DNA of 64,000 bases from an uncultured Bacteroidales bacterium (lineage in GTDB: Bacteria; Bacteroidota; Bacteroidia; Bacteroidales; FEN-979), in NCBI GenBank assembly GCA_903903985.1, contig CAIVAT010000153.1, forward strand, positions 57,352 through 121,351, in the 5' to 3' direction. Below the pieces are notes generated by a model, which saw nothing but the letters and a program-made list of their open reading frames with translations, had not been told where the DNA came from and did no database searches. Made by a program: the position numbers and the translations under genes. Positions 34,477-56,251 of this stretch are shown here, piece by piece. Each line of letters opens with the position of its first letter. Within the stretch, counting starts at the first letter, position 1.

Positions 34477-34578
34477 TAACCTGCCCAATTGTCCACTCGG
34501 TCTCAGCACTTTCCCGATATGCAAAAGAAAACCTATCGAACTTTTTGATTATCGGGTATTTACAAACTGAATATTTAT

Positions 34579-40550: not shown

Positions 40551-42191
40551 TCAATGGCATTTATCCACCTTCATATAGGGATAGGTAAATTCCGTAGATG
40601 GCATCAGGGTTTCTTTGATGGTGCGGGGATTGGTCCAGCGCAGCAGGTTGAGATGGCTTCCTGATTTATCGTTTGTTCCCGATCCGCGTGCACCGCCGAA
40701 TGGCTGCTGGCCGACCACCGCCCCCGAAGGCTTATCGTTGAAATAGAAATTTCCGGCGGCATAGCGCAGGATGCGGCAGGCCTTGTTGATGGCTTCGCGA
40801 TCCTTTGAAAACACCGAGCCGGTGAGGCCATAGGGGGAAGTCTGGTCGCAGATCTGCAGGGTCTCTTCGAATTCTTTATCCTTGTATACATAGATCGTCA
40901 TTACCGGTCCAAAGATCTCCTCTTCCATGGTTTTAAAATGGGGATTGGTTGTTTTAATCACCGTGGGCTGAACAAAATACCCTTTCGATTTATCTCCTGT
41001 TCCGCCGAAAACAACCTCGGCATCAGCCGATTTTTTTGCATGATCAATATATCCCATGATGTTGTCGAAGGAGGCCTCATCGATCACTGCATTCATGAAA
41101 TGGCTGAATTCACGCACATCTCCCACGGTGATCATTTCAATCATGCCTCCGATGCGCGATTTCACATCAGGCCACATCGACTCCGGGATGTATGCCCGGG
41201 ATGCAGCAGAACATTTCTGTCCCTGGTATTCGAACGCCCCACGTACAATGGCAACCGACACCTCCTGCGGATCGGAGGAGGGATGGACAAAAATAAAATC
41301 CTTGCCGCCGGTCTCGCCTACGATCCGTGGATAAGAACGGTAGTTGGCCATGTTCTGGGCGGCCATCTGCCACAGGCTGTTGAATGTATTGTTCGACCCG
41401 GTAAAGTGGATCCCGGTCATGTCGCGGTGTCCCAGGGCTGTCTTCCCTATCAGGCTTCCGGGTCCGGGGATAAAATTGATCACTCCATCGGGAAGGCCCG
41501 CCTCCTGGAATATCTTCATCAGGAAATAATTTGAAAGCAGGGAGGTGGTTGCGGGCTTCCATACGGAAGTGTTCCCCATGAGCGCAGGCGCCATGTTCAG
41601 GTTGGAAGCGATGGCGGTAAAGTTGAACGGGCTGATCGTCAGCACAAACCCTTCCAGCGGCCGGTACTCGATCCTGTTGATGATCCCTGGCTGGGAATGA
41701 GGCTGCTCTTTGTAAATCTCCGTGATGAAGTGGGCATTGAAATTGAGGAAATCGATGGTTTCACAGGCGGCATCAATCTCAGCCTGGTAGGCGCTTTTCC
41801 CCTGGCCAAGCATGGTGGCGGCATTGATGAGAAAGCGGTACTTTTTCGAAATCAGTTCAGCTGCCTTCAGGGTGATTGAAACCCGGTCGACCCAGGGAAA
41901 CGACTCCCATTCCTTGTGTGCCTTGAGTGCCGCGTCAATCGCCATGCGGATTTCAGGTTCGCCTGCCATATGATAACTGGCAAGGACATGCTGGTGGTCA
42001 TGCGGCATTACCACTTTCCCTGTCTTGCCGGTACGAACTTCTTTTCCGCCGATGATCAAAGGGATATCCTGCACTTCTGAACTCAGACGGTCCAGTTCGG
42101 CATTTAATGATTTTCTTTCCTTGCAGCCGGGGGCATAGGTAAGCGTATGCTCATTCTGCGGACGCTCCAGATTAAATATCGCATTATTCAT
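40551..42191 (-). CDS. pruA: L-glutamate gamma-semialdehyde (1-pyrroline-5-carboxylate) dehydrogenase
   Basis: ALDH superfamily: VWKPA, FTGSN, VGETGGKDF and the catalytic Cys in QGQKCSAASR. The ~545-aa PruA-type N-terminus is present. Start trimmed to MNNAIFN (42191). Confidence 0.85.
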   Translation of the reverse strand: MNNAIFNLERPQNEHTLTYAPGCKERKSLNAELDRLSSEVQDIPLIIGGKEVRTGKTGKVVMPHDHQHVLASYHMAGEPEIRMAIDAALKAHKEWESFPWVDRVSITLKAAELISKKYRFLINAATMLGQGKSAYQAEIDAACETIDFLNFNAHFITEIYKEQPHSQPGIINRIEYRPLEGFVLTISPFNFTAIASNLNMAPALMGNTSVWKPATTSLLSNYFLMKIFQEAGLPDGVINFIPGPGSLIGKTALGHRDMTGIHFTGSNNTFNSLWQMAAQNMANYRSYPRIVGETGGKDFIFVHPSSDPQEVSVAIVRGAFEYQGQKCSAASRAYIPESMWPDVKSRIGGMIEMITVGDVREFSHFMNAVIDEASFDNIMGYIDHAKKSADAEVVFGGTGDKSKGYFVQPTVIKTTNPHFKTMEEEIFGPVMTIYVYKDKEFEETLQICDQTSPYGLTGSVFSKDREAINKACRILRYAAGNFYFNDKPSGAVVGQQPFGGARGSGTNDKSGSHLNLLRWTNPRTIKETLMPSTEFTYPYMKVDKCH

Positions 42192-42294
42192 GTGAATTTT
42201 TTTATGTAAAATTAAGAAATATACCGATATGCTGTTTTTTGCATATCGATTATCTCCATCCGGCTGCAAAGATAATATATTATTTGGAATTGTT

Positions 42295-43668
42295 CTAAAT
42301 TAATTGCTGTCCCGCGAGTTCCCGCTTCCTGTTCTTCAGGAATAATGAGAGTATGATGAGGATGGCCGAGAGCAGGGTCATGACCAGGAATGCGATGCCA
42401 AAACCAATGGGTTTTCCGGGGGTGGCAGCAGCGATTGCACCTATCAGCGCAGCACCGGTAAGTTGGCCGATCGAAATAAATATCAATAAAATTCCTTGGG
42501 TTGAAGCCCGTTCCTTTGCCGGAACCTCGTTGAGCATGATGTAGCTCAGGGAAGATCGCATGGCAAGCCCAAACCCGAGGAACGCCTCGGCAGTATAGTA
42601 GAGCACCAGGTTTTCGGTAAGGAAGCTGAGGATTAACAATGCAATGGAGGAGATGATCAAACCCGAAACAATGATAATTTTCGAGCCGACTTTATCCACC
42701 AGGCGCCCTCCCAGCGGTGAACCCACCGCGGTAGCCACTACAACAGGCAGGAGCATGAAACTGGCCCGGGAGGGAACAACATTGAAAAGATCAACGGCCA
42801 TCTTGGGAAGAAAGACAATGGTTGATTGAAAGAGGCCGAGGCCAAAAGCAACAAACCCGACAATGCGAACCTGTGTCGATGAAAATAGTTTTATATTCAG
42901 GATTGGATCAGTCTGTCTTCTTTCCAGAAATATCAGGAAGGGAGTAAGGAACAGGGTCATCAGTACAAACGGCAGTACCTTTCCTGAAACCAGGCTCTCC
43001 GTCAAATGTTGCGTATCAAGGTTATTCAGCGCAAGGGTGAGACTGGTAAGGATCAATGCAAGAAGGATGATCCCGGAATAATCGACAGAAGGCTTTTTTG
43101 CAGGCCGGATGGACGGCAGCATCCTGAAGGCGGCTAACATCAGCAGAATGGCAACAGGGATGTTAATTAGGAATAAGGCATTCCAGTCGAAATAAAGGAG
43201 CATGAACCCGGCAATGAACGGACCCAGGATAAATGCAAAGCCAAAAACAGCGCCAATCAGACCGAGTGCCCTTCCCCGCTTTTCAATGGGGAAAATATCA
43301 CCCACCACGGCATTGGCGACGGGAAAAATACCACTTGAACCAAAACCCTGGATGGCCCTTCCGATGAGTAAAAAAGTTATTTCATGAGAAAGGGAGACCA
43401 CCAGCGATCCCAGCCCGAAAATACCCACGGCAATGATGTAAATCCAGCGTCGCCCAAAGGTATCCGACATCCTGGCCATCAGGGAAATCCCGACAAGGTT
43501 GAAGAGGATATAAATGGAATAGATCCAGCTCAGGTCACGCCCGCCGACATGCATGCTTTTTTCGATGGAAGGAATGGCAGGCCCTACGATCGAAATATCC
43601 AGGGCACCCATCAGGACGCCAATGAAAAGAAGAATCAGGATGGAGGTGTTATTTTTCAGTTGGGTCAT
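42295..43668 (-). CDS. MFS transporter (drug:H+ antiporter-like)
   Basis: About 14 TM spans. MFS motif A-like GRLVDKVGSK and MSDTFGRR. Confidence 0.8.
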   Translation of the reverse strand: MTQLKNNTSILILLFIGVLMGALDISIVGPAIPSIEKSMHVGGRDLSWIYSIYILFNLVGISLMARMSDTFGRRWIYIIAVGIFGLGSLVVSLSHEITFLLIGRAIQGFGSSGIFPVANAVVGDIFPIEKRGRALGLIGAVFGFAFILGPFIAGFMLLYFDWNALFLINIPVAILLMLAAFRMLPSIRPAKKPSVDYSGIILLALILTSLTLALNNLDTQHLTESLVSGKVLPFVLMTLFLTPFLIFLERRQTDPILNIKLFSSTQVRIVGFVAFGLGLFQSTIVFLPKMAVDLFNVVPSRASFMLLPVVVATAVGSPLGGRLVDKVGSKIIIVSGLIISSIALLILSFLTENLVLYYTAEAFLGFGLAMRSSLSYIMLNEVPAKERASTQGILLIFISIGQLTGAALIGAIAAATPGKPIGFGIAFLVMTLLSAILIILSLFLKNRKRELAGQQLI

Positions 43669-43768: not shown

Positions 43769-43795
43769 CCTATCCGGAAATTATTTTCGGATAGG
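43769..43795. promoter_or_regulatory. palindrome CCTATCCG-N11-CGGATAGG, candidate operator of the ModE-like regulator
   Basis: Perfect 8-bp arms (43769..43776 / 43788..43795), located 28-54 nt upstream of the TATTTTTG -7 box at 43823..43830 of the tungstate operon. Confidence 0.4.
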
Positions 43796-43847
43796 TCGAA
43801 CGGTGCATATCGCCAAAATGTTTATTTTTGTGGATATCTAAATTTTC

Positions 43848-44225
43848 ATGGAAACAAAATTCAGCAATAAGTTATCAGACATCCGCCTGCATTACAAAAT
43901 ATGGATGTCTGACGACCACGATACCGGGATCATGGGGGATGGAAAATGGCAGATGCTCAAACTGATCGAGGAGAAAGGATCGATGAAGGCAGCCTGTGAC
44001 GAACTGGGGTACACCTATCGCCGAACCTGGGGAAATTTAAAAAAAATTGAGAAGTTCTTCGGGTTTCCCTTGCTGGAAAAGCAGCGTGGTGGCAGTGACG
44101 GCGGGCATACAACCCTGACTGAAGAGGGAAAACGCCTCGTCAGGGCCTTCGATACGTTCCACAACACCATCGACACCCAGATACAACAAGGCTTTGAAAC
44201 ATTTATCCAGGGTTTAAACAAATAA
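43848..44225 (+). CDS. ModE N-terminal-domain-like winged-helix regulator (no Mop domains)
   Basis: GDGKWQMLKLIEEKGSMKAACDELGYTYRRTWGNLKKIE..LLEKQRGGSDGGHTTLTEEG matches the ModE/LysR-type wHTH pattern. It is the first gene of the W/Mo transport cluster. Confidence 0.65.
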   Translation: METKFSNKLSDIRLHYKIWMSDDHDTGIMGDGKWQMLKLIEEKGSMKAACDELGYTYRRTWGNLKKIEKFFGFPLLEKQRGGSDGGHTTLTEEGKRLVRAFDTFHNTIDTQIQQGFETFIQGLNK

Positions 44226-44244
44226 CATTCCAAACACACTTCAT

Positions 44245-45204
44245 ATGTACAGACAAGTAGTTATTCTTTGCTTAGGTTTTTTCGCCTTTCACTCTGGCCA
44301 TGCTCAAAAACCACAGCAACCGCTTTCAGGCGACCTGGTGATTTTCCATGCCGGCAGTTTATCAGTTCCGATGAAGGAAATTTCGGCAGCCTTCAAAGAA
44401 CTTCATCCGGAGGTCAACATCATGATGGAATCGGCCGGCAGTGTTGAATGCGCCCGGAAAGTCACCGACCTGAACAAGCCATGTGACATCCTTGCCTCCT
44501 CCGATTACAAGGTCATTGACAATATGCTGATCCCTAAATATGCAGCGTGGAACATCAAATTCGTATCCAACGAGATGTGCATTGTTTACACTGAAAAATC
44601 GAGGTTTGTCAAGCAAATCAATGTTAAAAACTGGTTCGAAATCCTGCAGAAGAAGGAAGTTGCCTTTGGACGCGCAGATCCGAACGCCGACCCGTGCGGC
44701 TACCGCTCGGTAATGACCATGCAACTGGCGGAGAAATTCTATAAGAAACCAGGCCTGACGAATCTTTTAACTGCCAAGGATGTGAACTACATGCGCCCTA
44801 AAGAAGTCGACCTGCTGGCACTTCTTGAATCTCAATCGGTCGATTATATTTTTCTCTACAAATCGGTGGCGATCCAGCACAACCTGAAATACCTCGTGCT
44901 TCCTTTGGAGGTGAACCTGAAGGATCCGAAATTCACCGATCTTTACAACACGGCCGTGGTAACGATCAATGGCAAGGAACCCGGGCAAAAGGTTACGGTC
45001 AAAGGCGAACCCATGATCTATGGGGTCACCCTGATCAATGCCGCGCCAAACAAGCCGGTCGCACTTGCATTCCTTCAATTCATGCTGTCGAAGGAAAAGG
45101 GAATGAGCATCCTTGAAAAAAACGGGCAGCCGTCGGTGATCCCCCAGCAAAACCCGAATTTCGACAATATTCCGGCAACCCTGAAGCCTTTCGCGGTTAA
45201 ATAG
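44245..45204 (+). CDS. wtpA: tungstate/molybdate ABC transporter substrate-binding protein, WtpA family
   Basis: Signal peptide. IFHAGSLSVPM, ESAGSVECARKV, FGRADPNADPCGYRS and DYIFLYKSVA resemble WtpA over the whole length. Confidence 0.8.
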   Translation: MYRQVVILCLGFFAFHSGHAQKPQQPLSGDLVIFHAGSLSVPMKEISAAFKELHPEVNIMMESAGSVECARKVTDLNKPCDILASSDYKVIDNMLIPKYAAWNIKFVSNEMCIVYTEKSRFVKQINVKNWFEILQKKEVAFGRADPNADPCGYRSVMTMQLAEKFYKKPGLTNLLTAKDVNYMRPKEVDLLALLESQSVDYIFLYKSVAIQHNLKYLVLPLEVNLKDPKFTDLYNTAVVTINGKEPGQKVTVKGEPMIYGVTLINAAPNKPVALAFLQFMLSKEKGMSILEKNGQPSVIPQQNPNFDNIPATLKPFAVK

Positions 45205-45288
45205 GCCGGAAACTTTTCAACAGAAAACAAATTGTTCTAAGAACATAATACCGATAGGCATCATTCGACATATCGAAAAAAAACACCT

Positions 45289-46194
45289 ATGAAAAATTCA
45301 TGGATTCTCCTGATTTTTATTACTGCATTCATTCTTGTGTTTGCAGAGGCATGTAAAAAGGATGAAAACCCTTCCCCACCGGCGATCGGGTTATTAACCG
45401 GCTCCGGATATACGCCGGCAGGCTCCATTATTGCTGTTGGAGGAAAACTCAGGTTTGGGATTACTGCTGCAGCCAATGGCGCCAACATCACAAACTTTGT
45501 CGTAAAGAAAATCATGCCTGACGGTTCAGTCAAGGTAATGCTTGACTCCGGTTTAAACTCAACCGGTTTTACGGTCAGCGAAACTTTCTATCAGGGTGTT
45601 GAAGCCGAAGCGCGATGGACCTTCCAGGTGATGGATAAAAACCGGCAATTTGCAACCACTGCGATCACATTATTCAAAGATCCGGCCTCGGCATGGGGCG
45701 GGATATTGGAGTATCCTTCCATTGTGATGGGATTTCAGAACAGTACGACCCACGGCCAGTTTCTGATCCCTTCCACCGGAAAAGTATACTTTGCGGATTC
45801 GGCTTCAATCAACCAGAGCCTGATTGATATTATTACATACTACTACGTCGATGGCACTCCTTCTCCTACCTTTTCATCGGCAGGCGAAACAGGTGGGGGA
45901 ATAGTTGATTATTACCCGGCAATCAGCCAGTGGGCAATAAAGAACTATACGAAGTGGGATATCAGTGTTGATACTGATCCTGTTCCGGTTTCTGCTTTCG
46001 ATGCCTGTCATAACGACAGCCTGCTGATTGTCAGATACAATGATGTATGGGGCAAACGAAAATTCAAATGGGCCAATCCTGGCGTCGTCATCCCTTTTTT
46101 AACCGCCTCCGGGAAAAAGGGGATGATCCGTGTAATTTCTGTTGAAAATGATCCTGCGGGGATGATCAACTTTGCTATGAAAATTCAACAATAA
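45289..46194 (+). CDS. lipoprotein of unknown function
   Basis: Lipobox VFAEAC. 301 aa with Ig-like N-terminal beta-rich sequence. No motif recognised. Confidence 0.5.
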   Translation: MKNSWILLIFITAFILVFAEACKKDENPSPPAIGLLTGSGYTPAGSIIAVGGKLRFGITAAANGANITNFVVKKIMPDGSVKVMLDSGLNSTGFTVSETFYQGVEAEARWTFQVMDKNRQFATTAITLFKDPASAWGGILEYPSIVMGFQNSTTHGQFLIPSTGKVYFADSASINQSLIDIITYYYVDGTPSPTFSSAGETGGGIVDYYPAISQWAIKNYTKWDISVDTDPVPVSAFDACHNDSLLIVRYNDVWGKRKFKWANPGVVIPFLTASGKKGMIRVISVENDPAGMINFAMKIQQ

Positions 46195-46242
46195 CAAGCA
46201 TATGCATCATTCAATCTATTCTCTAAATCTAAACTACAAATT

Positions 46243-47112
46243 ATGAAAAAAAAATTACTCTTTGCCCTTCTGGCAATCATTTCCGGTTCACTTTTTGCCC
46301 AGGAAACACTTACAGGCTGGAACTTTCCGGCAAATTCGGGATCCGACAGCCTGAATGCAAATCTCGGGACCACCCAAAACAAAACGTATGATATCCGTTT
46401 CCAATGGGTTTTAACCCCAACCACCGATTCCACGTTAAACACCGTAACTTTTGTCAATGGAGCCACAACGTATGCTGCAGCAACTACAGGCTGGGCGGAT
46501 GGTTCCGGCATCAAGTTCTGGTCCATTAAATTCAAGGCCAACAATTATTCCAATTTCAAGTTGTCATCAAAGCAAAAAAGTGATGCCACCAATGCAGGGC
46601 CACGCGATTTTAAACTGCAGTGGCGGTTAAGCAGTGGCACATACGTGGATGTCGCTGGCGGAACAGTTACCCTTGGGGCCGACTGGACGACGGGGGTAGT
46701 TACAAACCTTCCGATCCCAATTACCGGACAGGGTACCAGTTCGATCTACATTCGCTGGATCATGGCATCAAATACCAACATCAATGGCAGTACAGTAACT
46801 GCTGCCGGACAGTCGATGATTGATGACATCCTGGTTACCGGGGTAAGTTCTCTGGGTCAAGAAGAAATCATCTATACCAACCGCCTGAAGGTTTATCCTT
46901 CTCCGAACAAAGGGGCATTCACCATTTCATCAACTGAGCCAATTGATTTCATGATCGTTACAGATATTAATGGTAATACAATATGTAAAACTGCCAACCC
47001 ATTACAACAGCAATCAATTGCAATCCCTGATGCAAAACCAGGCGTTTACCTGTTGAAAGTCCGGTTCAAAGGAAGTGATCAGGAAGTCTCAACCCGCTTT
47101 GTTGTTGAATAA
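46243..47112 (+). CDS. secreted protein with a T9SS type-A C-terminal sorting domain
   Basis: Signal peptide. The C-terminal ~75 aa (LKVYPSPNKGAFTI..GVYLLKV..) is a typical Por/T9SS CTD. Confidence 0.6.
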   Translation: MKKKLLFALLAIISGSLFAQETLTGWNFPANSGSDSLNANLGTTQNKTYDIRFQWVLTPTTDSTLNTVTFVNGATTYAAATTGWADGSGIKFWSIKFKANNYSNFKLSSKQKSDATNAGPRDFKLQWRLSSGTYVDVAGGTVTLGADWTTGVVTNLPIPITGQGTSSIYIRWIMASNTNINGSTVTAAGQSMIDDILVTGVSSLGQEEIIYTNRLKVYPSPNKGAFTISSTEPIDFMIVTDINGNTICKTANPLQQQSIAIPDAKPGVYLLKVRFKGSDQEVSTRFVVE

Positions 47113-49489
47113 GAACTTTTTTTATGTTTTGAGGGCAAGGATACCCGGCAGCAACCTTACATGGCTGACCTGTATTCTTGCTCTCTTTCCATTTTCTTTG
47201 GTTTGTGCAGGAGGATGTATATACGGGAAAGTAACCGGAGGACCTTCCAGCAGCCCGCTCGCCGGCGCCCATGTGATCCTGGAACAACAAAATAAAATAT
47301 CTTTTACTGATTTATCAGGCTCCTTCAAGTTTGCCGATGTCAGTATCGGTAAAATAGTTGTCCGGGTTTCATTTATCGGTTTTAAAACCAAAACAAAAAC
47401 GATAACGATAAAAAACGGGCAAAGTTTCCGGGTCGACTTCAACCTTGAAACAGATGCCCTTGATGCCCCGGAAGTTGAAATTCTGTCGGTGAAACCGGAA
47501 CGTACTCCCCAGGAGGTACCGGTTCGCATGGATATCATATCGGCTCAAACGATCGCAAATACTCCCGGGCAAAACATTGTATCCGTTCTTGATTTTATTT
47601 CAGGGGTAAATCTTTCATCAACCATGGGTATTTTCTCAAACAATACCGTGGTTACGCTGCGCGGACTCAGTGGGAATGACCAGGGCAGAACGCTGGTGTT
47701 GCTGGATGATGTTCCGATGAATAAGGCAGATGCCGGAAGTGTGAACTGGAACCTGATCAATCGCGACAATGTCGAGCGTATTGAAGTGCTGAAGGGCCCC
47801 GGCCCTGCCAAATACGGAAGCAGTGCGATGGGAGGAGTGATCAATATTCAGACTAAAAAGCCCGAAAGACGTTTTTCCGGGCTGGCCACCATCGATTATG
47901 GCACGTTTCATACGGCTGGTTTTCGTTACCAGTTGGCTGGAACGTTTAAACCCGAAATGACAGGCAAAGGATTTTACTATGGGCTCAACGGATTTTATCG
48001 CCGGAGTGATGGCTATAATCCTGAAATACCTCAATACCTTGAAAAAAGTGACACTTTTTATGTAAATAACTACCTGAGAGAGGCTGCTTTAGGCGCGAAA
48101 TCAGGATACCAGTTCAATTCATTGAACATGATCGAGATCAGTACCAATTTTTTCAATGACAAACGTGGCCGTGGCGTCGAAATCTATGAGGTTGACGGAG
48201 CCTTTGAACGGCATAATACCTGGCAGGCAAATGGACGATACAAAGGCGGCAAAGGGTCTATCCGTTGGAGTGCCCTTGCCTATAACCAGGTTGAATACTT
48301 CGAGCGGCTTAACGAATCCATAAAGGAAGCCGAATACAGCCTCTACCTGGTTAAATCAAACAGGGTTGATGGCGGAGCCAGCCTCAACGCAACCATTCCC
48401 GGTGGCCGGGCACATGTCTTTACTGCAGGGTTTGATTACCAGTTCGGCAGTGTAAATGGCCAGGATATTTACTATACTTCCACCGACCTTATTTCCAATT
48501 CAGGAAAAATGGATACCTGGGCTGTGTTTTTGCAGGATGAGATCGGACTGGTAGAAAAAAAACTTCAGATCAACCTGGGTCTCCGTTTGAATACCGCCAT
48601 CTTCCATGATGGAAGTTTCAGGATCGACAACCCCTCCTATTCCATTCAGTATCTTGTTGATTACCAGGACAGTTTATTCCCCCGAAACCAGTGGTACCAG
48701 ATCGACCCTAAAATATCTTTGCAGTACCGGTTCACTCCCCGGTCACGGATCTATTTTTCTGCGGCTCAGGGTTTCCGTGCACCAAACCTGGATGATCTCT
48801 GCCGTACAGGAAAAATTTCCAAAGGATTCAAAATTGCAAATCCGGCACTGAAGCCTGAAGTACTGGACAATTTTGAAGTTGGAACAGACCTGCTGCTGTT
48901 TAAAAAACTGCATGTGGCAGCTTCCTTTTATTACTCCATCGGCCGTGATTTCATGTATTATGTGAGTAACGGGGATTCTGTCAATATGGGCTATAAACGA
49001 ACGCCTGTTTTCATGAAGCAAAATATCAGCCAGGTTGATATTGCCGGGTTTGAATTCGACACAGACATTGAACCGTTTTCGTGGCTGTCTGTTTTCGCCA
49101 ACTACACTTTCAACCATTCCGTTATCAGCAGATTTGAATCAAAGGATACAGCCGTGGACAGAGATTTAAATGGCAAGTATCTCACGGATGTTCCCATGCA
49201 CAAAGCCTCTGCCGGATTCACCATTAAAAGCAAAGTTGTAAACGTGAACATTCTGTGGAAATATACTGGTGAACGATATATCAACGATGTAAACGAACAG
49301 GATCCCTATCTGCTGACAAGTAAATATCCCGCATACCAGACTTTCGGTGCCAGGGCCTGGCATACCTTCTTCAAACACCTCACTACCGGCCTGAATGTTG
49401 AAAACATATTTAATACCATGTTCATCGACGACCGGCTGCAGCAAAGTCTGGGCAGAATGATCACACTGGAAATTACTGCAACGTTTTAA
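47075..49489 (+). CDS. TonB-dependent outer-membrane receptor with a CarboxypepD_reg N-terminal domain
   Basis: GKVTG..PLAGAHVIL..TDLSGSF (CarboxypepD_reg), plug motifs VEVLKGPGPAKYGSSAMGGVINIQTK, a long barrel and a terminal aromatic (EITATF). The GTG start at 47075 overlaps the upstream gene; TTG at 47129 is an alternative. Confidence 0.85.
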   Translation: MIRKSQPALLLNKNFFYVLRARIPGSNLTWLTCILALFPFSLVCAGGCIYGKVTGGPSSSPLAGAHVILEQQNKISFTDLSGSFKFADVSIGKIVVRVSFIGFKTKTKTITIKNGQSFRVDFNLETDALDAPEVEILSVKPERTPQEVPVRMDIISAQTIANTPGQNIVSVLDFISGVNLSSTMGIFSNNTVVTLRGLSGNDQGRTLVLLDDVPMNKADAGSVNWNLINRDNVERIEVLKGPGPAKYGSSAMGGVINIQTKKPERRFSGLATIDYGTFHTAGFRYQLAGTFKPEMTGKGFYYGLNGFYRRSDGYNPEIPQYLEKSDTFYVNNYLREAALGAKSGYQFNSLNMIEISTNFFNDKRGRGVEIYEVDGAFERHNTWQANGRYKGGKGSIRWSALAYNQVEYFERLNESIKEAEYSLYLVKSNRVDGGASLNATIPGGRAHVFTAGFDYQFGSVNGQDIYYTSTDLISNSGKMDTWAVFLQDEIGLVEKKLQINLGLRLNTAIFHDGSFRIDNPSYSIQYLVDYQDSLFPRNQWYQIDPKISLQYRFTPRSRIYFSAAQGFRAPNLDDLCRTGKISKGFKIANPALKPEVLDNFEVGTDLLLFKKLHVAASFYYSIGRDFMYYVSNGDSVNMGYKRTPVFMKQNISQVDIAGFEFDTDIEPFSWLSVFANYTFNHSVISRFESKDTAVDRDLNGKYLTDVPMHKASAGFTIKSKVVNVNILWKYTGERYINDVNEQDPYLLTSKYPAYQTFGARAWHTFFKHLTTGLNVENIFNTMFIDDRLQQSLGRMITLEITATF

Positions 49490-49512
49490 TCATTTATTTA
49501 AATAAAATTGTC

Positions 49513-50595
49513 ATGAAAAAACCCGCTAGCATTGTTTTATTAACTTTACTTTTGTCATCAGGCTTTGCCCAGAAACCAGAAGATCCTTTGAAAAACAATT
49601 CCGACCTGAAAGCTGCATCACAGGTTATTCCGGACAAGACAGACCGGAACAACAATTTCTATGACAATGAGGAAACCTACTCCTTGCCGGTGAAGGAACT
49701 CATCATTGCAGGAGAGATAGAAAATCCGGGTAAAGTTGACTTCTCGAAACTGGTAAAACGATCGGTAATCGTTAAGGAGGCCCTGTTGAAACAGGATACC
49801 GCCAACCAATTTGTCGGAGCCTACCGTTATGATGGTTATTCATTGTTTGACATCCTTTGTGACCGGCGCCTGAAGAAAAAAAATGCGGCAGATTTCCGGC
49901 CAATCATCGATTTGTTTGTTGAAATTGAAAATGACAAAGGGGAAAAAGTCGTTTTAAGCTGGGGGGAGATCTATTACCCAAACTCACTTCACAATATTAT
50001 CATCGCTACAGAGGTTATGCGCATTGTCCCCAGTAAAACCAAGGATCTCTGGCCATTGCCCGCAGAAAGCAAGTTGATTGTCGGGCAGGATCTTATCTCC
50101 GAAAGGAATATTTCCAGCCCGGTAAAGATCACGATCATCTCCTACCGGCGAAACTACATGGTTAATCGTGATATCAGTCCGCTTGTTTCAGAAAAGGTGG
50201 ATGTGTTCTCAGGTGAGGCCCAAACAGACAGTTTCTCGGCAACTCCCGATAAGATGCAAACGGAAACCCTGCATACAATTTTCTATGGGAAAGGACGGGG
50301 AATTCACAGTACCCAGCCTTTCTCAGGAGTCTACCTGAAGGACTACCTGGCAGGAAAAATTCAATTCAACCGTGAAAATCTGCGCAAAGGATTGGTTATT
50401 TGCGCCGGCATCGACGGATACCGCTCGGTGTATACATTCAGCGAGATCATGAACCGCAACGACCAGGCCGAGGTCCTGTTGGTCCCCTGTCCCGGGGAGA
50501 AAGACGGTGGAAAATTCCGGATCTTTCCGTCATGTGACTTTTTCTCCGATCGTGCTGTGAAGGCGTTGTCGGAAATACGGTTTGAGAGACGATGA
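49513..50595 (+). CDS. exported two-domain protein, each half loosely resembling a molybdopterin-binding (SUOX-fold) oxidoreductase domain
   Basis: Signal peptide. The two halves share the pattern Y.G.(S/Y)L.D.L ... DGY/KGE...(S/T)(W/F).EI ... D..S(E/D)R..K..(I/L).I. The fold assignment is by eye only. Confidence 0.35.
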   Translation: MKKPASIVLLTLLLSSGFAQKPEDPLKNNSDLKAASQVIPDKTDRNNNFYDNEETYSLPVKELIIAGEIENPGKVDFSKLVKRSVIVKEALLKQDTANQFVGAYRYDGYSLFDILCDRRLKKKNAADFRPIIDLFVEIENDKGEKVVLSWGEIYYPNSLHNIIIATEVMRIVPSKTKDLWPLPAESKLIVGQDLISERNISSPVKITIISYRRNYMVNRDISPLVSEKVDVFSGEAQTDSFSATPDKMQTETLHTIFYGKGRGIHSTQPFSGVYLKDYLAGKIQFNRENLRKGLVICAGIDGYRSVYTFSEIMNRNDQAEVLLVPCPGEKDGGKFRIFPSCDFFSDRAVKALSEIRFERR

Positions 50596-50652
50596 AAAAT
50601 GCAAAAGGCAAAATGAAAATTGTAAAAGTATAAATGCAAAATTTAAAATGAA
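50596..50652 (+). repeat. A-rich ~8-nt word array (AATGCAAA/AATGAAAA) in an intercistronic spacer
   Basis: aaaatgcaaaaggcaaaatgaaaattgtaaaagtataaatgcaaaatttaaaatgaa fills the whole spacer before wtpB. Confidence 0.6.
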
Positions 50653-51447
50653 TTGAAAAATCGCATCTCATCGATACAATTAGTTTTCGTTATGCTGGGT
50701 TCGCTGGTTTTGCTTTTCATTTTGGCACCGCTGACAGGAATGTTTCTCAATACCACTCCCGGCCAGGTGTTTGAAACTGCCCGGGAATCGGAAGTAAGGA
50801 ACAGCATCTGGCTTACAATATATACATCCTTTGCCGGCACACTGATTTTTTCACTGGCAGCCATTCCACTGGCATATTTGCTGGCCAGGAAAAAATTCCC
50901 GATGAAAAAGCTGGTTACCGGCATCATCGATTTGCCGGTGGTAATTCCCCACTCTGCCGCCGGAATTGCGTTGCTTGGGTTTGTTTCCCGTGAATCGGCC
51001 CTGGGAAAAATAGGTTCGGCCGTTGGCCTTAATTTCGTTGGTCATCCTGCAGGAATTGCCATAGCAATGGCATTTGTAAGCATTCCATACCTCATCAATG
51101 CATCCCGTGATGGATTTGCAGGAGTCCCGGTACGACTTGAAAAAGCGGCGCTGACGCTAGGAGCATCTCCATACAGGGTGTTTTTTACCGTCTCCATGCC
51201 GCTGGCATGGAGGAATATTTTATCAGGTCTGATCCTGATGTTTGCCCGCGGGATGAGTGAGTTCGGTGCCGTGATCGTGGTGGCCTATCACCCGATGATC
51301 ACGCCTGTTCTTATCTATGAACGATTCGGGGCCTTCGGACTGAAATATGCACGTCCGGTGTCGGTTCTTTTCATCCTGATTTCACTTGCCCTGTTCATTG
51401 TCTTGAGGTGGCTGGCGAAGGAAAAAACCAGTGAAATGGCGAAATAG
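50653..51447 (+). CDS. wtpB: tungstate/molybdate ABC transporter permease
   Basis: 6 TM spans with an EAA-type loop LEKAALTLGASPYRVFFTVSMPLA. TTG start; ATG at 50692 is an alternative. Confidence 0.8.
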   Translation: MKNRISSIQLVFVMLGSLVLLFILAPLTGMFLNTTPGQVFETARESEVRNSIWLTIYTSFAGTLIFSLAAIPLAYLLARKKFPMKKLVTGIIDLPVVIPHSAAGIALLGFVSRESALGKIGSAVGLNFVGHPAGIAIAMAFVSIPYLINASRDGFAGVPVRLEKAALTLGASPYRVFFTVSMPLAWRNILSGLILMFARGMSEFGAVIVVAYHPMITPVLIYERFGAFGLKYARPVSVLFILISLALFIVLRWLAKEKTSEMAK

Positions 51448-51465
51448 CAAAATAGCGAAAATTAA
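51433..51465 (+). repeat. AATAGCGA/AATAGCAA word array
   Basis: gaaatggcgaaatagcaaaatagcgaaaattaa spans the wtpB stop and the spacer before wtpC. The word recurs at 52516.. and 54576..54591. Confidence 0.6.
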
Positions 51466-52521
51466 ATGATGCTGGAATTAATAAATATCACGAAGCGGTT
51501 TGCCGATTTCTGTTTGGAAGAGGTCACCTTCTCTGTCGGGGAAGGCGACTATTTCATTCTTTTAGGGGAGTCAGGCGCCGGGAAATCAATGGTACTCGAG
51601 ACCATTGCCGGGTTGATCACTCCTGATTCTGGTACCGTATCGCTTGATGGGCAGGATATTACCCCTTTTAAAATCCAGCACAGAAAGATCGGGCTGGTGT
51701 TCCAGGATCATGCTGTTTTTCCTCATCTCACTGTAGCTGAAAACATTGTTTATTCGCTGCATGGCAATGCATTAACGAAAGATGAGAAACAAGAAAAAGT
51801 CATCTCCATTGCGAACGAACTGGGGATAAAGGAGTTGTTGAATCGCAAACCGGGAACTTTATCAGGCGGTGAACTTCAAAGGGTGGCGCTGGGTCGCACG
51901 CTTGTTCAGCAACCCACCGTCTTGTTGCTGGATGAACCCCTTTCTTCGCTTGACACCAGGCTCAAGGGAGACCTCCGCCGTTTACTCCGGGCTATTCACC
52001 GCAAGGGTCAAACCATCCTGCATGTCACCCACGATTATGAGGAGGCCCTTTCACTTGCAACGAAAATCGCTGTCATTCACCAGGGAAGGATCATTCAGTC
52101 GGGAACCCCGGCCGAAGTATTCCTGCATCCGAAATCAGAGTTCGTTGCTCATTTTATCGGGGTAAAGAACTTTTTTGAAGCGAAACTTCTTACAACAAAT
52201 CAGGTTTCCTATGCGTTTACACATAACAATTTCCAGGTGCGGATTGTTACAGACATCCCCGATGGAGACGGGTTCATCCTCATCCGGGGGGAAGATATAT
52301 TTTTATCGAACCAACCCGTTGAAACAAGTGCTGCCAACACTTTCAAAGGAATTGTAATAGAGATCGTACCAAACAAAACAGGCGTTGATGTAGCGATTGA
52401 TGCAGGTATTGAACTGCACGCCCTCATTACCCGGGAGTCTCTTGAAAAACTGGACCTGGTGGCAGGAAAAACCTGTTGGATGCATTGTAAAGCAACTGCA
52501 GTGAGATTCATAAGCAAATAG
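51466..52521 (+). CDS. wtpC: tungstate/molybdate ABC transporter ATPase with a C-terminal TOBE-like domain
   Basis: Walker A GESGAGKS, signature LSGGELQRVAL, Walker B LLLDEP, and a C-terminal ~110-aa beta-rich extension. Confidence 0.85.
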   Translation: MMLELINITKRFADFCLEEVTFSVGEGDYFILLGESGAGKSMVLETIAGLITPDSGTVSLDGQDITPFKIQHRKIGLVFQDHAVFPHLTVAENIVYSLHGNALTKDEKQEKVISIANELGIKELLNRKPGTLSGGELQRVALGRTLVQQPTVLLLDEPLSSLDTRLKGDLRRLLRAIHRKGQTILHVTHDYEEALSLATKIAVIHQGRIIQSGTPAEVFLHPKSEFVAHFIGVKNFFEAKLLTTNQVSYAFTHNNFQVRIVTDIPDGDGFILIRGEDIFLSNQPVETSAANTFKGIVIEIVPNKTGVDVAIDAGIELHALITRESLEKLDLVAGKTCWMHCKATAVRFISK

Positions 52522-52560: not shown

Positions 52561-53790
52561 ATGGTTTTATTCGAAGATGCATTAAAAATCGTTCTGAGCC
52601 AGGACTTTAAACCCGGGGTTGAAAGGGTTGCTTTGTCTGAAGCCTGTGGCAGAATTCTTGCCGGGGATATTTTTTCCGATATGGATATGCCGCCATTTGA
52701 CAAATCGGCCGTGGATGGTTACGCCTGCCAGATGACAACCGGAACATCGCAAGGCATAACCCCGTCAATTGACCGGGCACAAATTATTGCGGTGCCGAAT
52801 GAGAAGCCATTGCTTGTGGTTGAAACCATATCGGCCGGGACAATTCCAAAACAAGCCATCGTGCCCGGCCGATGTTCCAAGATAATGACCGGCGCCATGG
52901 TTCCCCGCGGGGCTGATTGTGTAATTATGGTTGAAGACACAGAATCGGCAGGCGAGAACCTTGTCAGGTTTACCCTGGAAAACACGGCAAAAAATATTTG
53001 TTACCAGGGAGAGGATATCAGGAAAGGGGAGCTGGTTCTGCAAAAAGGCATCCGGATCACCCCCGCCCATATGGCAGTTCTGGCCAGTGTCGGCGCCACG
53101 GATCCTTTGGTATCAACGCTTCCAAGAGTGGGTATCTTCTCCACCGGGGATGAACTAGTGGAACCCGGAACAATCCCCGGAATCGCCCAGATCCGAAACT
53201 CAAATGCCTCTCAGCTGGAAGCACAGGTCAGGCAGGTTCCTGCTCTTCCGACCTATTATGGAATTGCTCCGGATAAATCTGAAGAACTTTATAAAATCAT
53301 TGACCTGGCCCTTGCAAACAACGATCTGGTGATACTGACCGGTGGCGTTTCCATGGGTGATTTTGATTTTGTCCCTGCGGTTATGAAAGACGCCGGTGTC
53401 GATATTTTTTTTAAGCGTATTGCCATCCAGCCAGGTAAACCGACCGTTTTTGGGCGCCGTGATCATACTTTCATTTTTGGTTTACCAGGCAATCCGGTTT
53501 CTTCGTTCGTGATCTTCGAAATGCTGGTCAAACCCCTGTTGCACTTGATGATGGGCAGTTCCTGGAAACCGCTGGAATGCATGCTTCCGCTGGGTGTTGA
53601 TTTCTCCCGGCACAGCTCAGCCCGGAAATCGATGGTGCCGGTAATCATGAAAGATGGAGTTGTTTTCCCGGTTGAATATCATGGATCTGCCCACATCAAT
53701 GCCTATTCGGTTGCCAATGGCATCATGAATGTACCGATCGGAACCACCACCCTTAAACAAGGAGAACAAGTGCATGTACGACTGCTATAA
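52561..53790 (+). CDS. moeA: molybdopterin molybdenum/tungsten transferase MoeA
   Basis: PPFDKSAVDGYA, TGGVSMGDFDFV, IQPGKP and GLPGNPVSS. Confidence 0.9.
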   Translation: MVLFEDALKIVLSQDFKPGVERVALSEACGRILAGDIFSDMDMPPFDKSAVDGYACQMTTGTSQGITPSIDRAQIIAVPNEKPLLVVETISAGTIPKQAIVPGRCSKIMTGAMVPRGADCVIMVEDTESAGENLVRFTLENTAKNICYQGEDIRKGELVLQKGIRITPAHMAVLASVGATDPLVSTLPRVGIFSTGDELVEPGTIPGIAQIRNSNASQLEAQVRQVPALPTYYGIAPDKSEELYKIIDLALANNDLVILTGGVSMGDFDFVPAVMKDAGVDIFFKRIAIQPGKPTVFGRRDHTFIFGLPGNPVSSFVIFEMLVKPLLHLMMGSSWKPLECMLPLGVDFSRHSSARKSMVPVIMKDGVVFPVEYHGSAHINAYSVANGIMNVPIGTTTLKQGEQVHVRLL

Positions 53791-54574
53791 CCGACGGATC
53801 AACTACCTGCGTGTCTCCATCACCGACCGGTGCAACCTCCGCTGCACTTACTGCATGCCTGCCGAAGGGGTGAAAATGCTCGATCACAAAGACATTCTCA
53901 GTTTCGAAGAAATTGTGGAGGTAATCAAGACAGCAGTGGGCCTTGGCATCACCAAAGTACGTATTACAGGGGGTGAGCCACTGGTGCGCAAAGGGGTCAT
54001 CAGCTTGATTGAAAAAATCGGAGCCATCAAAGAAATCAAGGATTTCGGCCTCACCACCAATGGGATTCTGCTTCCCTTATTTGCAGATGACCTTGCAAAG
54101 GCAGGGCTTCAGCGAATCAACATCAGCCTTGACACCCTTGATCCGGAAAGATTCAGTGCCATCACGCGTGGTGGCGACATTCAACAGGTATTTAAAGGGA
54201 TAGAAGCAGCGAAAAAAGCAGGATTGACGCCAATAAAAATTAATTGCGTGGTACGTAATACCTCGGAGGAACCCGATGCACAGGCAATCAGGGAATATTG
54301 CCGTGAAAATGGCCTTGAAGCACGGTTCATCCACGAGATGAGCCTGGCCGACGGAAGGTTTACCATTGTGGAAAATGGCCATGGCGGCGACTGTATAAAT
54401 TGCAACCGTCTCAGGGTAACCGCCAATGGCATGGTTCATCCATGCCTGTTTAACGACATTGCCTTCAACATACGTGAACTTGGCATCGCGGAGGCACTTC
54501 AACAAGCAGCAGCTCGAAAGCCGGAGAAAGGGAGTATGAATGCTGGCGGGGGGTTTCATCACATCGGGGGATAA
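53774..54574 (+). CDS. moaA: GTP 3',8-cyclase MoaA (compact 266-aa form)
   Basis: Radical-SAM CNLRCTYCMP, second cluster CINCNRLRVTANG..HPCLF, and a C-terminal GG. The ATG at 53774 overlaps the moeA stop by 17 nt. Confidence 0.85.
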   Translation: MYDCYNRRINYLRVSITDRCNLRCTYCMPAEGVKMLDHKDILSFEEIVEVIKTAVGLGITKVRITGGEPLVRKGVISLIEKIGAIKEIKDFGLTTNGILLPLFADDLAKAGLQRINISLDTLDPERFSAITRGGDIQQVFKGIEAAKKAGLTPIKINCVVRNTSEEPDAQAIREYCRENGLEARFIHEMSLADGRFTIVENGHGGDCINCNRLRVTANGMVHPCLFNDIAFNIRELGIAEALQQAAARKPEKGSMNAGGGFHHIGG

Positions 54575-54748
54575 TACAAATAGCGAAATGGTGATGGGTG
54601 AACCTTCTGGACAAGACATGCCTTCTTTAAACAACTTTGACTACAAATAATGAACATCCTCGCCGCAGAGTGGCGAGGTATCAAATTAGTAAAATATTTC
54701 TCTTCTCGTCGCAAGACGGGGAAGTAACCCAACCAACTCAACCTCCGT

Positions 54749-54786: not shown

Positions 54787-54802
54787 CAATTAAATTTTCA
54801 TT

Positions 54803-55273
54803 ATGGCCAAACGTAAAAATCAAACCTTATCCCATGTTGACGACCTGGGCAAGGCAAACATGGTTGATGTTGGTGCAAAACCTTACCAGATGCGCACTGC
54901 CAGAGCATCAGGACACATCAGCCTCCAGAAGGATACGCTGGACCTCATCCGGAAAAATAAGATCAAAAAAGGCGATGTGCTTACCATTGCTGAAATCGCG
55001 GGCATCCAGGGCGGTAAACGTACCAGTGACCTGATCCCTTTATGTCATCCGTTGCAAATCACAAAACTTGATGTGAAAGCAACTGCCGATAAAGCCGGCG
55101 TGAAGGTCGAAAGCCTGGCCAGGTGCAACGGCCAGACCGGTATCGAGATGGAGGCGCTAACAGCCGTTTCGATCGCCCTGCTTACCATCTATGACATGTG
55201 CAAGGCTGTCGACACTATGATGGTTATCGGGGAGATCGGTCTGATCGAAAAAACCAAAGGGGAGATCGGTTGA
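54803..55273 (+). CDS. moaC: cyclic pyranopterin monophosphate synthase MoaC
   Basis: MVDVGAK, LIPLCHPL and TGIEMEALTAVSIALLTIYDMCKA. Confidence 0.9.
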   Translation: MAKRKNQTLSHVDDLGKANMVDVGAKPYQMRTARASGHISLQKDTLDLIRKNKIKKGDVLTIAEIAGIQGGKRTSDLIPLCHPLQITKLDVKATADKAGVKVESLARCNGQTGIEMEALTAVSIALLTIYDMCKAVDTMMVIGEIGLIEKTKGEIG

Positions 55274-55318: not shown

Positions 55319-56251
55319 ATGCAAAGGGTTAAAATAAACTCCGTTAACATTTCCGGGCAGAAGGGTACAATTAAGAATGCTGTCGAAATGGTTGAACTGA
55401 CGCACTCAGGTGTCAGGAATGATGCCCATGCCGGCCACTGGAACCGGCAGATCAGCCTCCTTGGAACGGAAAGTATCATGAAATTCGAGAAAGAATCAGG
55501 GAGGAAAGTGGTTCCGGGTGAATTTGCTGAAAATATTACCACAACAGGCATGGATCTTTGGACTGTACATCCGTTGGATCGGTTTACCTCAGGGGAAATA
55601 GAGCTGGAAGTCACACAAATAGGCAAGGAGTGCCATGGCAGCAGTTGTGCTATTTTCAAAGAGGTAGGAAATTGCGTTATGCCCAAAGAGGGGATTTTTT
55701 GCCGGGTGCTGAGTCCAGGCATTCTGAAAGCAGGGATGGAACTGGAATATCATCCGAAAATGTTCCGGATCATGGTCATCACCCTGAGCGACCGTGCTTC
55801 TGCAGGGGAATACGAAGACCGTTCCGGGTTGCGCATCCGGGAACTGGTTGCGGAATTTTTCAGTTCACTGAATATCCACCATTTTATCCATTATGCACTG
55901 ATCGCAGATGATCCGGTTAAACTGGAAGAGTTACTGCATAAAGCCAAGGAAGAACTTGTCGATCTTGTGATTACAACCGGTGGAACCGGGATCGGACCAC
56001 GTGATTTCACACACGACGTGGTGCGCCGCTTGCTTGACAAGGAGATTCCCGGCATCATGGAATTCATCAGGATAAAATATGGCACAGATAAACCTGCGGC
56101 GCTTCTGAGCCGTTCTGTTGCAGGTGTAATGGGGAAATCGCTGATATTCACACTTCCTGGAAGTTTAAAGGCTGTCAATGAATACATGGCGGAAATTTCA
56201 ACATCATTGATGCATATGATCCATATGTTGCATGGCCTGGATAGCCACTAA
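55319..56251 (+). CDS. MOSC-domain / MogA(MoaB)-domain fusion protein
   Basis: The N-terminal ~145 aa are MOSC-like (GVRNDAHAG..RQISLL..GEFAENITT..IGKECH). The C-terminal part is MogA/MoaB-like (ITLSDRAS.GEYEDRSG, TTGGTGIGPRD, LPGSLKA). Confidence 0.75.
   Translation: MQRVKINSVNISGQKGTIKNAVEMVELTHSGVRNDAHAGHWNRQISLLGTESIMKFEKESGRKVVPGEFAENITTTGMDLWTVHPLDRFTSGEIELEVTQIGKECHGSSCAIFKEVGNCVMPKEGIFCRVLSPGILKAGMELEYHPKMFRIMVITLSDRASAGEYEDRSGLRIRELVAEFFSSLNIHHFIHYALIADDPVKLEELLHKAKEELVDLVITTGGTGIGPRDFTHDVVRRLLDKEIPGIMEFIRIKYGTDKPAALLSRSVAGVMGKSLIFTLPGSLKAVNEYMAEISTSLMHMIHMLHGLDSH

Follow-up and report, generated by a model that had tools for sequence, protein, structure and literature searches.

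A TonB-dependent receptor cassette within a predicted ModE-type regulon of Bacteroidota is a candidate for tungstate/molybdate acquisition across the outer membrane

We analyzed a 64,000-nucleotide stretch of the genome of an uncultured Bacteroidales bacterium (GTDB lineage FEN-979; GenBank assembly GCA_903903985.1, contig CAIVAT010000153.1, positions 57,352 to 121,351), hereafter the window, in which the genes of a tungstate/molybdate transporter, wtpA, wtpB and wtpC, are interspersed with genes encoding a TonB-dependent receptor (TBDT) and several unnamed proteins. The window is best explained as a regulon island responsive to tungsten (W) and molybdenum (Mo), with a core uptake unit, wtpA-P6-wtpB-wtpC, where P6 is an exported protein, and a mobile cassette of three genes that encode a lipoprotein (P3), a cargo protein of the type IX secretion system (T9SS; P4) and the TBDT. 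With moderate confidence, we interpret this cassette as a W/Mo-regulated, TonB-energized outer-membrane acquisition module that feeds WtpA, P6 and WtpBC; it is the best candidate so far for an energized route of tungstate/molybdate over the outer membrane. The computed basis consists of gene content, recurrent linkage, a shared operator, and the lack of membership of the receptor in known receptor families. A first-pass annotation of the window had proposed a functional link between W/Mo acquisition and the receptor with its accessory proteins, and linkage, operator and receptor scores together lend this proposal support in silico.

Results and discussion

Recurrence of the cassette and its linkage to wtp genes

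Loci for comparison (denoted by L or P numbers) were collected by scanning one genome per species with a receptor alignment, followed by tblastn searches with the window proteins, open reading frame (ORF) maps and further look-ups. Eighteen of these, in which the receptor is 40-80% identical to the window TBDT, were informative. WtpA, WtpB or WtpC is encoded within 10 kb of the cassette in 13 of the 18 loci, and either P6 or a Wtp protein in 15. In the loci compared, the P3 gene always adjoins the receptor gene. The gene order of the window, (HTH-)wtpA-P3-P4-TBDT-P6-wtpB-wtpC, where HTH stands for the gene of a helix-turn-helix regulator, is found in L005, L008, L085 and L208 and, as far as the contig or locus extends, in L006, L012 and L014. 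Other arrangements include P4-TBDT-P6 followed by genes for two membrane proteins and wtpABC (L010); a cassette located about 5.5 kb from wtpAB (L009) or convergent with wtpCBA (L013 and the P0220 locus); wtpA-P3-P4-TBDT with neither P6 nor permease, where the binding protein passes the WtpA cut-off (L086); P3-P4-TBDT-P6 alone (L004 and L207); and cassettes with neither wtp nor P6 in reach (L084, L209 and L011, the last of these a double module).

The proximity of the receptor gene to wtpA, P6 or wtpBC, as in the window, recurs over species-level genomes, in at least five gene orders of cassette and wtp and with receptor orthologues down to 40% identity. The lineages represented include Prolixibacteraceae (L005) and Marinilabiliales (L010). 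That the linkage was kept through at least five rearrangements argues for selection. At 38% identity or below, the receptors have no CarboxypepD_reg domain and are encoded away from wtp. An apparent additional gene order in L002 (4826-5353), where an inverted wtpB start follows P6 at the contig end, is most likely an assembly artefact and was discarded.

P6 as a component of wtp operons

The first-pass annotation described a four-gene insert between wtpA and a permease gene that would normally be contiguous. However, the order (HTH-)wtpA-P6-wtpB-wtpC, without receptor, P3 or P4, is found in L003, L210 and the P0027 locus. Because this order exists receptor-free in three loci, the inserted unit is P3-P4-TBDT, located between wtpA and P6, so that the insert comprises three genes rather than four and, in this lineage, wtpA and the permease gene are not normally contiguous but flank P6. 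Judged by gene order, P6 is a native member of the wtp operon in this Bacteroidota lineage. It is tied to WtpA by its location between wtpA and wtpB in the three receptor-free loci and by P0390, a relative that joins P6 and a WtpA domain, the latter scoring above the curated cut-off, in one fusion protein.

Homologues of P6 form 2201 clusters, none of them named and every one from Bacteroidota assemblies, and a profile search of 1.8 billion representative proteins recovered 345 relatives. When the AlphaFold2 model of P6 (pLDDT 83, pTM 0.81) was compared using Foldseek, the only significant fold matches in the PDB were to the sulfite dehydrogenase SorT (4pw3 and 5k3x; E 2e-4, probability 0.99), with a TM-score of only 0.27. 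Distant P6 relatives (E 1e-20 to 1e-28) pass the Pfam threshold for Oxidored_molyb (PF00174), with the matches covering, depending on the relative, one half of the protein (N- or C-terminal) or both halves. A profile search of the PDB with P6 gave nothing useful, and neither did P6 itself match PF00174, even at E values up to 10. In the wide P6 alignment, both halves share the motifs G-[YV]-x-L-x-D-[IY]-L, S-[WY]-[GS]-E-[IL] and D-x-x-x-x-D-R. Comparison of the two halves by BLAST and hhalign did not detect a significant internal duplication; a duplication is only suggested, by the repetition of these motifs and by the PF00174 matches to both halves in distant relatives.

P6 is linked to PF00174, the family of sulfite-oxidase-fold proteins such as SorT and YedY/MsrP, through intermediate sequences, and has SorT as its top structural match, at the low TM-score given above, but differs from these proteins in lacking a direct PF00174 match, in consisting of two tandem domains, in having no cysteine that is invariant across the family alignment, and in carrying a Sec-type signal peptide (MKKPASIVLLTLLLSSGFAQ) without a twin arginine. 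For these reasons, P6 is probably not a molybdenum-cofactor enzyme of the conventional kind. No match was obtained when the PDB was searched with an intermediate sequence, so that residues could not be mapped onto solved sulfite oxidases; read by eye, the GKGRGIHS loop of P6 would be the equivalent of the cofactor-cysteine loop. We read P6 as a putative periplasmic, tandem sulfite-oxidase-fold-like protein, which would work with WtpA rather than act as a classical cofactor enzyme. Among the distant P6 relatives, a C-terminal tetrapyrrole-methylase domain is also found, and five of them (P0452, P0458, P0470, P0474 and P0500) combine this fusion with a CxxCH motif, resembling a haem-attachment site, within an insertion in the first domain, which is an unusual architecture.

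A predicted ModE-type operator and its regulon

Comparison of upstream regions identified a 24-nt palindrome, CGATATGC-N8-GCATATCG, as a candidate operator. With three mismatches or fewer allowed, the window contains four sites (Table 1) against 0.16 expected, and none of 100 shuffled sequences reached this number. Module loci contain 22 sites in 353 kb, other loci 2 in 944 kb. The operator precedes HTH-wtpA or wtpA in L003, L005, L008, L085, L086 and L208, with the same layout in front of HTH-wtpA as in the window in L003, L005, L085 and L208; it is also located upstream of the gene of an aldehyde:ferredoxin oxidoreductase (AOR) family protein, placed as in the window, in L003 and L005. The cassette itself is preceded by the operator in L004, L007, L012, L013, L022 and L207, and in both stand-alone cassettes that were checked, L084 and L209, the operator immediately precedes P3 with the usual spacing to the -7 box. 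Taking all these promoters together, the operator mostly ends 9-11 nt upstream of the TAnnTTTG -7 box. The window operator in the wtpA-P3 spacer is nearly identical to that of the L084 cassette. The cassette does not appear to be uncoupled from W/Mo control: a predicted ModE-type operator precedes it in the window as well as in L004, L007, L012, L013, L022, L084, L207 and L209.

The operator and the E. coli ModE consensus, ATCGNTATATA-N6-TATATANCGAT (PMC545781), have in common a 24-nt CG-to-CG span and the CGnTAT half-site. As in the E. coli ModE-ModABC system, the operator overlaps the promoter of the uptake genes and sits further upstream of an enzyme gene; the HTH protein of the window matches the N-terminal domain of ModE at a score under the cut-off. 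The two systems differ in the inner half-site, which is ATGC here and ATATA in E. coli, in the promoters, which are of the Bacteroidota type here, and in the regulator, which here lacks the metal-binding Mop/TOBE domains. ModE genes that encode the DNA-binding domain alone, and in this respect resemble the regulator of the window, have been noted in Desulfovibrio (PMC545781). Among perfect operators in public metagenomes, 26 of 120 loci, on contigs with a GC content of 0.41-0.76, adjoin a gene for a ModE-like HTH protein, a Wtp, Moe or Moa protein, AOR or P5C dehydrogenase; the other perfect sites roughly equal the number of matches expected by chance. We conclude that the palindrome is a predicted operator of the ModE family and that the cassette belongs to its putative regulon.

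A scan for sigma-70 promoters and terminators was abandoned because the counts equaled those in shuffled sequence and the consensus is not applicable to Bacteroidota; the TAnnTTTG -7 motif was used instead. This motif is present at the three operator-bearing promoters of the window and in none of the internal spacers of the block, so that one long transcript starting near position 43823 fits. From the HTH gene to the MOSC-MogA gene, the spacers measure 18-96 nt or are replaced by overlaps, apart from 228 nt between moaA and moaC, the plus strand contains no terminator-like site within any spacer of the block, and the GC content is even over the whole block. The first-pass description of tightly spaced genes without terminators accordingly stands, but it did not account for the operator in the wtpA-P3 spacer. 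Given this internal operator, it may be too simple to regard the block as a single unit, and the P3-proximal site may either have been left behind by the insertion or act as a second point of control. Searched with Rfam at gathering thresholds, the whole window yielded no known RNA element, the Moco riboswitch included; no Fur-, NikR- or B12-type element was found. In two loci, short tandem repeats separate the promoter/operator region from the first gene, namely, about eight copies of CACCATGT in L085 (about 6540-6650) and about nine copies of AACCTGT in L009 (about 4040-4110), which could be phase-variable leaders.

Two predicted members of the regulon are enzymes. The window AOR is 85-89% identical to AOR genes that adjoin wtp loci in L003, L005 and L087, scores below the specific AOR equivalog cut-off of NCBIfam, and is a likely consumer of the imported W. 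The start of the P5C dehydrogenase gene, at 42191, was deduced from 546-amino-acid (aa) orthologues in L003 and L210. In these two loci and in L208, the dehydrogenase gene and the HTH gene of the wtp operon are directly divergent, and in two metagenome contigs (L091 and L142) the dehydrogenase gene adjoins perfect operators. In the window, a gene of a major facilitator superfamily (MFS) transporter separates the dehydrogenase gene from the HTH gene, and its own perfect operator may be a consequence of the insertion of the MFS gene. The activator-like position of the operator at AOR and its repressor-like position at the P5C dehydrogenase gene suggest a W-dependent switch between the tungstoenzyme AOR and an NAD-dependent aldehyde dehydrogenase. 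The idea that the operator-controlled dehydrogenase is a generic NAD-dependent substitute for AOR, which would spare tungsten, was set aside and left open, given that NCBIfam assigns the protein as P5C dehydrogenase.

Receptor, accessory proteins and transporter

The TBDT contains complete Plug (PF07715, 80.6 bits) and barrel (PF00593, 140.5 bits) domains, preceded by an N-terminal CarboxypepD_reg domain, and Pfam detects no STN signaling domain. Its scores lie far under all reported NCBIfam substrate cut-offs, including the haem, B12 and siderophore families (TonB-hemin, 157 against a cut-off of 317 bits; haemoglobin/transferrin, 129 against 324; siderophore, 103 against 224; B12, 89 against 600). 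The receptor therefore does not group with receptors of known, unrelated substrates, an outcome in line with the first-pass annotation. It has no close relative among solved structures, and at least 544 homologue clusters, with more distant receptors included, were recovered.

In P3, the lipobox cysteine (Cys22, within ...FAEAC) is followed by KKDEN, which matches the surface-export signal C-X-K-(D/E)2-X defined experimentally in Bacteroidota (PMC5080379). Lysine is found at position +3 in all 41 members of the P3 family, and aspartate or glutamate at +4 in 38 of the 41. Judging from this signal, P3 is probably a surface-exposed lipoprotein. The AlphaFold2 model (pLDDT 84) consists of an N-terminal immunoglobulin (Ig)-like sandwich and a C-terminal domain that matches nothing; Foldseek returned only generic Ig-like matches, confined to the N-terminal half, and a PDB profile search with P3 gave nothing useful. 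The search for P3 homologues recovered 255 clusters.

P4 ends in a type A C-terminal sorting domain (PF18962, 33 bits against a cut-off of 27; TIGR04183, 33.2 against 23) and would be displayed on the surface or secreted through the T9SS. Its N-terminal domain of about 195 aa is rich in conserved lysines and arginines, including those in the stretches SIKFKA, FKLSSKQ and GPRDFKLQ, and matches no family; the PDB profile search with P4 matched T9SS sorting domains only.

The transporter is of the Wtp type, as in the archaea Pyrococcus furiosus and Archaeoglobus fulgidus. Apart from the match in Table 1, WtpA passes TIGR03730 (323 against 243 bits) and aligns with solved archaeal WtpA/ModA structures (3cg1, 2onk and 3cfz) with E-values of 1e-67 to 1e-71. 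Its D149 (in ADPCGYR) and E187 (in RPKEVDL) align with the conserved aspartate and glutamate of 3cfz and 2onk, which we take to be the oxyanion ligands that provide octahedral coordination, Asp153 and Glu218 in the A. fulgidus protein. The permease and the ATPase have WtpB (NF040839, 282.6 bits) and WtpC (NF040840, 359.1 bits) as their best matches, under the equivalog cut-offs of 340 and 440, respectively. Compared with the archaeal systems, which are similar in the WtpA equivalog, the aligned carboxylates and these best matches, the system described here belongs to a diderm host, contains the extra P6 protein and, in some genomes, the outer-membrane cassette, and has WtpB and WtpC proteins that score under the equivalog cut-offs. 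The 125-aa HTH protein passes the Pfam cut-off for HTH_1 and matches only the N-terminal domain of ModE (TIGR00637, E 9e-21, 73.8 bits, under the cut-off of 98.5); neither Pfam nor NCBIfam detects in it the C-terminal tandem Mop (molybdate-binding)/TOBE domains of ModE.

Gene content of the window

The ORFs listed in the first-pass annotation were all recovered on the plus strand where it had placed them, and its gene assignments largely agree with ours (Table 1). Thus, Pfam and NCBIfam matches together with export signals bear out WtpA, the lipoprotein, the T9SS protein, the TBDT of the CarboxypepD_reg type, the exported protein, the permease and the ATPase; the domains of MoeA, MoaA, MoaC and the MOSC-MogA protein were found downstream, and both AFOR domains in the AOR. 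The ModE-like regulator in front of the block was likewise found, with a match that is below the cut-off and limited to the N-terminal domain.

Table 1. Genes and predicted operators of the W/Mo block and its surroundings in the window
Feature	Position	Strand	Support or context
Operator, 2 mismatches	34515..34538		upstream of AOR, 40 nt before TAnnTTTG -7 box; activator-like position
AOR	34620..36779	+	Pfam AFOR_N 152 bits, AFOR_C 327 bits; tungstopterin enzyme family
P5C dehydrogenase (L-glutamate gamma-semialdehyde dehydrogenase)	40551..42191	-	TIGR01236, 775 bits against cut-off 614
Operator, perfect	42225..42248		18 nt downstream of -7 box TATCTTTG of P5C dehydrogenase promoter; repressor-like position
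MFS transporter	42295..43668	-	
Operator, 3 mismatches	43789..43812		10 nt upstream of -7 box TATTTTTG of HTH-wtpA promoter
ModE-like HTH regulator, 125 aa, DNA-binding domain only	43848..44225	+	HTH_1, TIGR00637
WtpA, periplasmic tungstate/molybdate-binding protein	44245..45204	+	NF003196, 370.1 bits against cut-off 355
Operator, 2 mismatches	45252..45275		wtpA-P3 spacer, 13 nt before P3 ATG; no -7 box nearby
P3, lipoprotein	45289..46194	+	lipobox; no family match
P4, T9SS cargo	46243..47112	+	Por_Secre_tail above cut-offs
TBDT	47075..49489	+	Pfam CarbopepD_reg_2, Plug, barrel
P6, exported, 360 aa	49513..50595	+	Sec signal; no family match
WtpB-like ATP-binding cassette (ABC) permease	50653..51447	+	best match NF040839; BPD_transp_1
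WtpC-like ABC ATPase with C-terminal TOBE	51466..52521	+	best match NF040840; ABC_tran, TOBE
MoeA, metal insertion into molybdopterin	52561..53790	+	
MoaA, radical S-adenosylmethionine (SAM) enzyme, first step of pterin cofactor synthesis	53774..54574	+	Radical_SAM, Mob_synth_C
MoaC	54803..55273	+	
MOSC-MogA/MoaB fusion protein	55319..56251	+	

Two similar GC-rich, hairpin-forming elements were observed in the spacer upstream of AOR (CCCTTCTCCCTGAGGAGAAGGG..., at 34430-34475) and in the moaA-moaC spacer (CCCTTCCCCTGAAGGAGAAGGGG..., at 54740-54800). They may belong to a small family of intergenic repeats; a strict pattern search of the window recovers the first copy only.

Variants, paralogues and out-groups of the cassette

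Several of the loci compared contain additional genes around the cassette. In L004 (5790-8698), where the receptor is 74% identical to the window TBDT, the genes after P6 are not wtpBC but encode a radical SAM protein of the B12-binding type and an exported protein of 507 aa without a family match. The two membrane proteins encoded between P6 and wtpA in L010 (4236-5772) have no Pfam or NCBIfam match; one recalls the cytochrome c synthase CcsA by a W-rich stretch, the other ResB by its layout.

A paralogous module, X1-X2-P3'-TBDT', in which the receptor is 32-38% identical to the window TBDT, was found in L009 (4165-8719), L013 (12626-16605, minus strand), L027 (4426-8775), L011 (618-4961) and the P0220 locus. 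A ModE-type operator is located at the X2-P3' junction in L009, L013 and L027 but was not detected in L011. X1, which is soluble and about 250 aa long, contains the motif IGIDDTDN and is weakly similar to methanogenesis marker 11, and X2 is a membrane protein with five or six transmembrane segments; neither matches a Pfam family. In L027, the paralogous module lies away from wtp.

The nearest out-group receptors, from Balneolales and about 35% identical to the window TBDT, are flanked by genes for NikR and a Peripla_BP_2 binding protein (L017, 9333-15063; L019, 3679-7630), and the L017 cluster additionally contains genes for FecCD and an ABC ATPase. L017 and L019 look like candidate loci of TonB-dependent uptake of nickel or a nickel chelate. 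That these two out-group receptors belong to clusters with NikR and chelate-type ABC components indicates that the wider receptor clade handles metals.

Proposed mechanism and alternative explanations

Under the interpretation that we favor, the promoter would fire when W/Mo is scarce and the 125-aa ModE-like protein is off its operators. At the cell surface, P3, P4 or both would then catch the tungstate or molybdate, free or as a labile complex, and the receptor would carry the captured species into the periplasm using TonB energy. There, WtpA, together with P6, would take it over, WtpBC would import it, and MoeA and the Moa/Mog enzymes would make the pterin cofactor for the co-regulated AOR.

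Several observations weigh against this interpretation. Small oxyanions such as molybdate are thought to enter through porins (reviewed in PMC8264917), so that the need for an energized route is not obvious. The structure predictions of P6 and P3 display no recognizable oxyanion-binding site, and the predicted regulator lacks the metal-binding Mop domain through which it could sense W/Mo. The operator in the wtpA-P3 spacer has no recognizable -7 box and could be an insertion relic; the same spacer contains only a site with four mismatches in L005 and none in L085. Three cassettes (L011, L084 and L209) are distant from wtp, and the linkage counts do not represent independent events, given the shared ancestry of the loci. 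Finally, we infer, rather than observe, metal-dependent regulation, the transported species, the surface exposure of P3 and P4, and binding by P3, P4 and P6.

The alternative that fares best is that the cassette imports complexed W/Mo, be it bound to a metallophore or organic matter, as a thio-species, or as the pterin-bound cofactor of other cells, with P6, which would have a cofactor-binding fold but lacks the cysteine ligand, receiving the complex in the periplasm and handing the metal to WtpA. We consider this explanation rather unlikely. TonB-dependent receptors generally serve ligands that are too large or too scarce for porins, which fits a complex, and the homology of P6 to the Oxidored_molyb fold through intermediate sequences, along with the match of its model to SorT, points in the same direction, although the low TM-score of that match counts against it. 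The paralogous module, with its operator, its own membrane protein with five or six transmembrane segments and a cytoplasmic enzyme-like protein, is also compatible with such cargo; the combination of a membrane protein and an enzyme-like protein suggests an organic substrate that is processed inside the cell. However, P6 is present in receptor-free wtp operons, so that its ligand must have a receptor-independent way into the periplasm; no genes of metallophore biosynthesis were seen adjoining the cassette, and WtpA retains the carboxylates aligned with the conserved positions of oxyanion-binding WtpA/ModA proteins.

A more specific scenario, which appears unlikely to us, is that the cassette and P6 form a salvage route for already bound W/Mo, such as the pterin cofactor, its breakdown products, or metal bound to an organic or sulfur ligand from neighboring cells. 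In this case, P3 and P4 would catch the bound metal, the receptor would import it, and the cysteine-less, double-fold P6 would receive it and pass the metal to WtpA. If true, this would give a group-6 metal its first outer-membrane pathway and the sulfite-oxidase fold a new role outside enzymatic catalysis.

It is quite improbable that the cassette serves some unrelated nutrient (iron, haem, nickel or a vitamin, for example) and merely landed in the wtp locus and was inherited with it, the palindromes belonging to wtp. The top NCBIfam model for the receptor is indeed a haem/haemoglobin receptor subfamily, its homologues are annotated as 'Fe transport', the out-group receptors are found in NikR clusters, and there are the three cassettes away from wtp. 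However, the named receptor families all score far under their cut-offs, the linkage persists across the rearrangements described above, no element of the Fur, NikR or B12 type was found, Rfam matches nothing in the window, and the stand-alone cassettes of L084 and L209 keep the operator in front of P3 although they are far from wtp genes. Least of all do we expect the cassette to be W/Mo-regulated without serving uptake, as a surface sink, a sensor, or a receptor with another use for which the demand varies with W status: the regulon does contain the non-transport genes for AOR and P5C dehydrogenase, and P4 has no recognizable binding fold, but the receptor is complete in Plug and barrel and free of an STN domain, in L086 it is co-operonic with the WtpA binding protein, and its operator and promoter have the spacing found at the wtp uptake operon, so that cassette and operon should be on under the same conditions.

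Comparison with known systems and implications

Bacteroidota employ pairs of a receptor and a lipoprotein for several nutrients, including BtuB-BtuG for B12, HmuR-HmuY for haem and SusC-SusD for glycans, and dedicated metal receptors, such as ZnuD, OprC/NosA and FrpB4, are known as well. The cassette is similar to these pairs in combining a receptor with an adjacent lipoprotein that carries a surface-export signal, in its predicted regulation by a sensor of the nutrient supplied, and in that it would be an energized route for a trace nutrient. It differs in that P3 and P4 showed no sequence or fold relation to solved structures, the receptor does not resemble SusC, and a group-6 oxyanion is predicted as cargo. 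A further parallel, as far as it is described in PMC11734730, where the original work is cited, is the acquisition of molybdate in Pseudomonas aeruginosa by ModA secreted through the type VI secretion system together with IcmP, a protein of the outer membrane. There, as proposed here, an extracellular protein and an outer-membrane partner are involved rather than porin diffusion alone; the differences are that the secretion system here is the T9SS, the outer-membrane partner is a TBDT in place of IcmP, and the secreted protein is not a ModA homologue. The first-pass annotation knew of no described system of this kind, and we found no TBDT assigned to W/Mo in the open-access literature searched, which does not prove that none has been described.

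The passage of tungstate and molybdate through the outer membrane is usually dismissed as porin diffusion, and the cassette is a specific, widely distributed candidate for this step. It adds three unnamed protein families and a predicted W/Mo regulon to TonB-dependent nutrient uptake. Because the candidate comes with a predicted regulator and operator, accessory proteins and a client enzyme, it is directly testable. Two results can be used apart from the receptor, namely, P6 as a new periplasmic component of bacterial Wtp transporters, and the ModE-type operator for mapping W/Mo regulons in Bacteroidota and beyond. The hosts inhabit anoxic sediments, digesters and similar habitats, in which W is present at trace levels and tungstoenzymes are important, and the system may shape the competition for tungsten in these communities.

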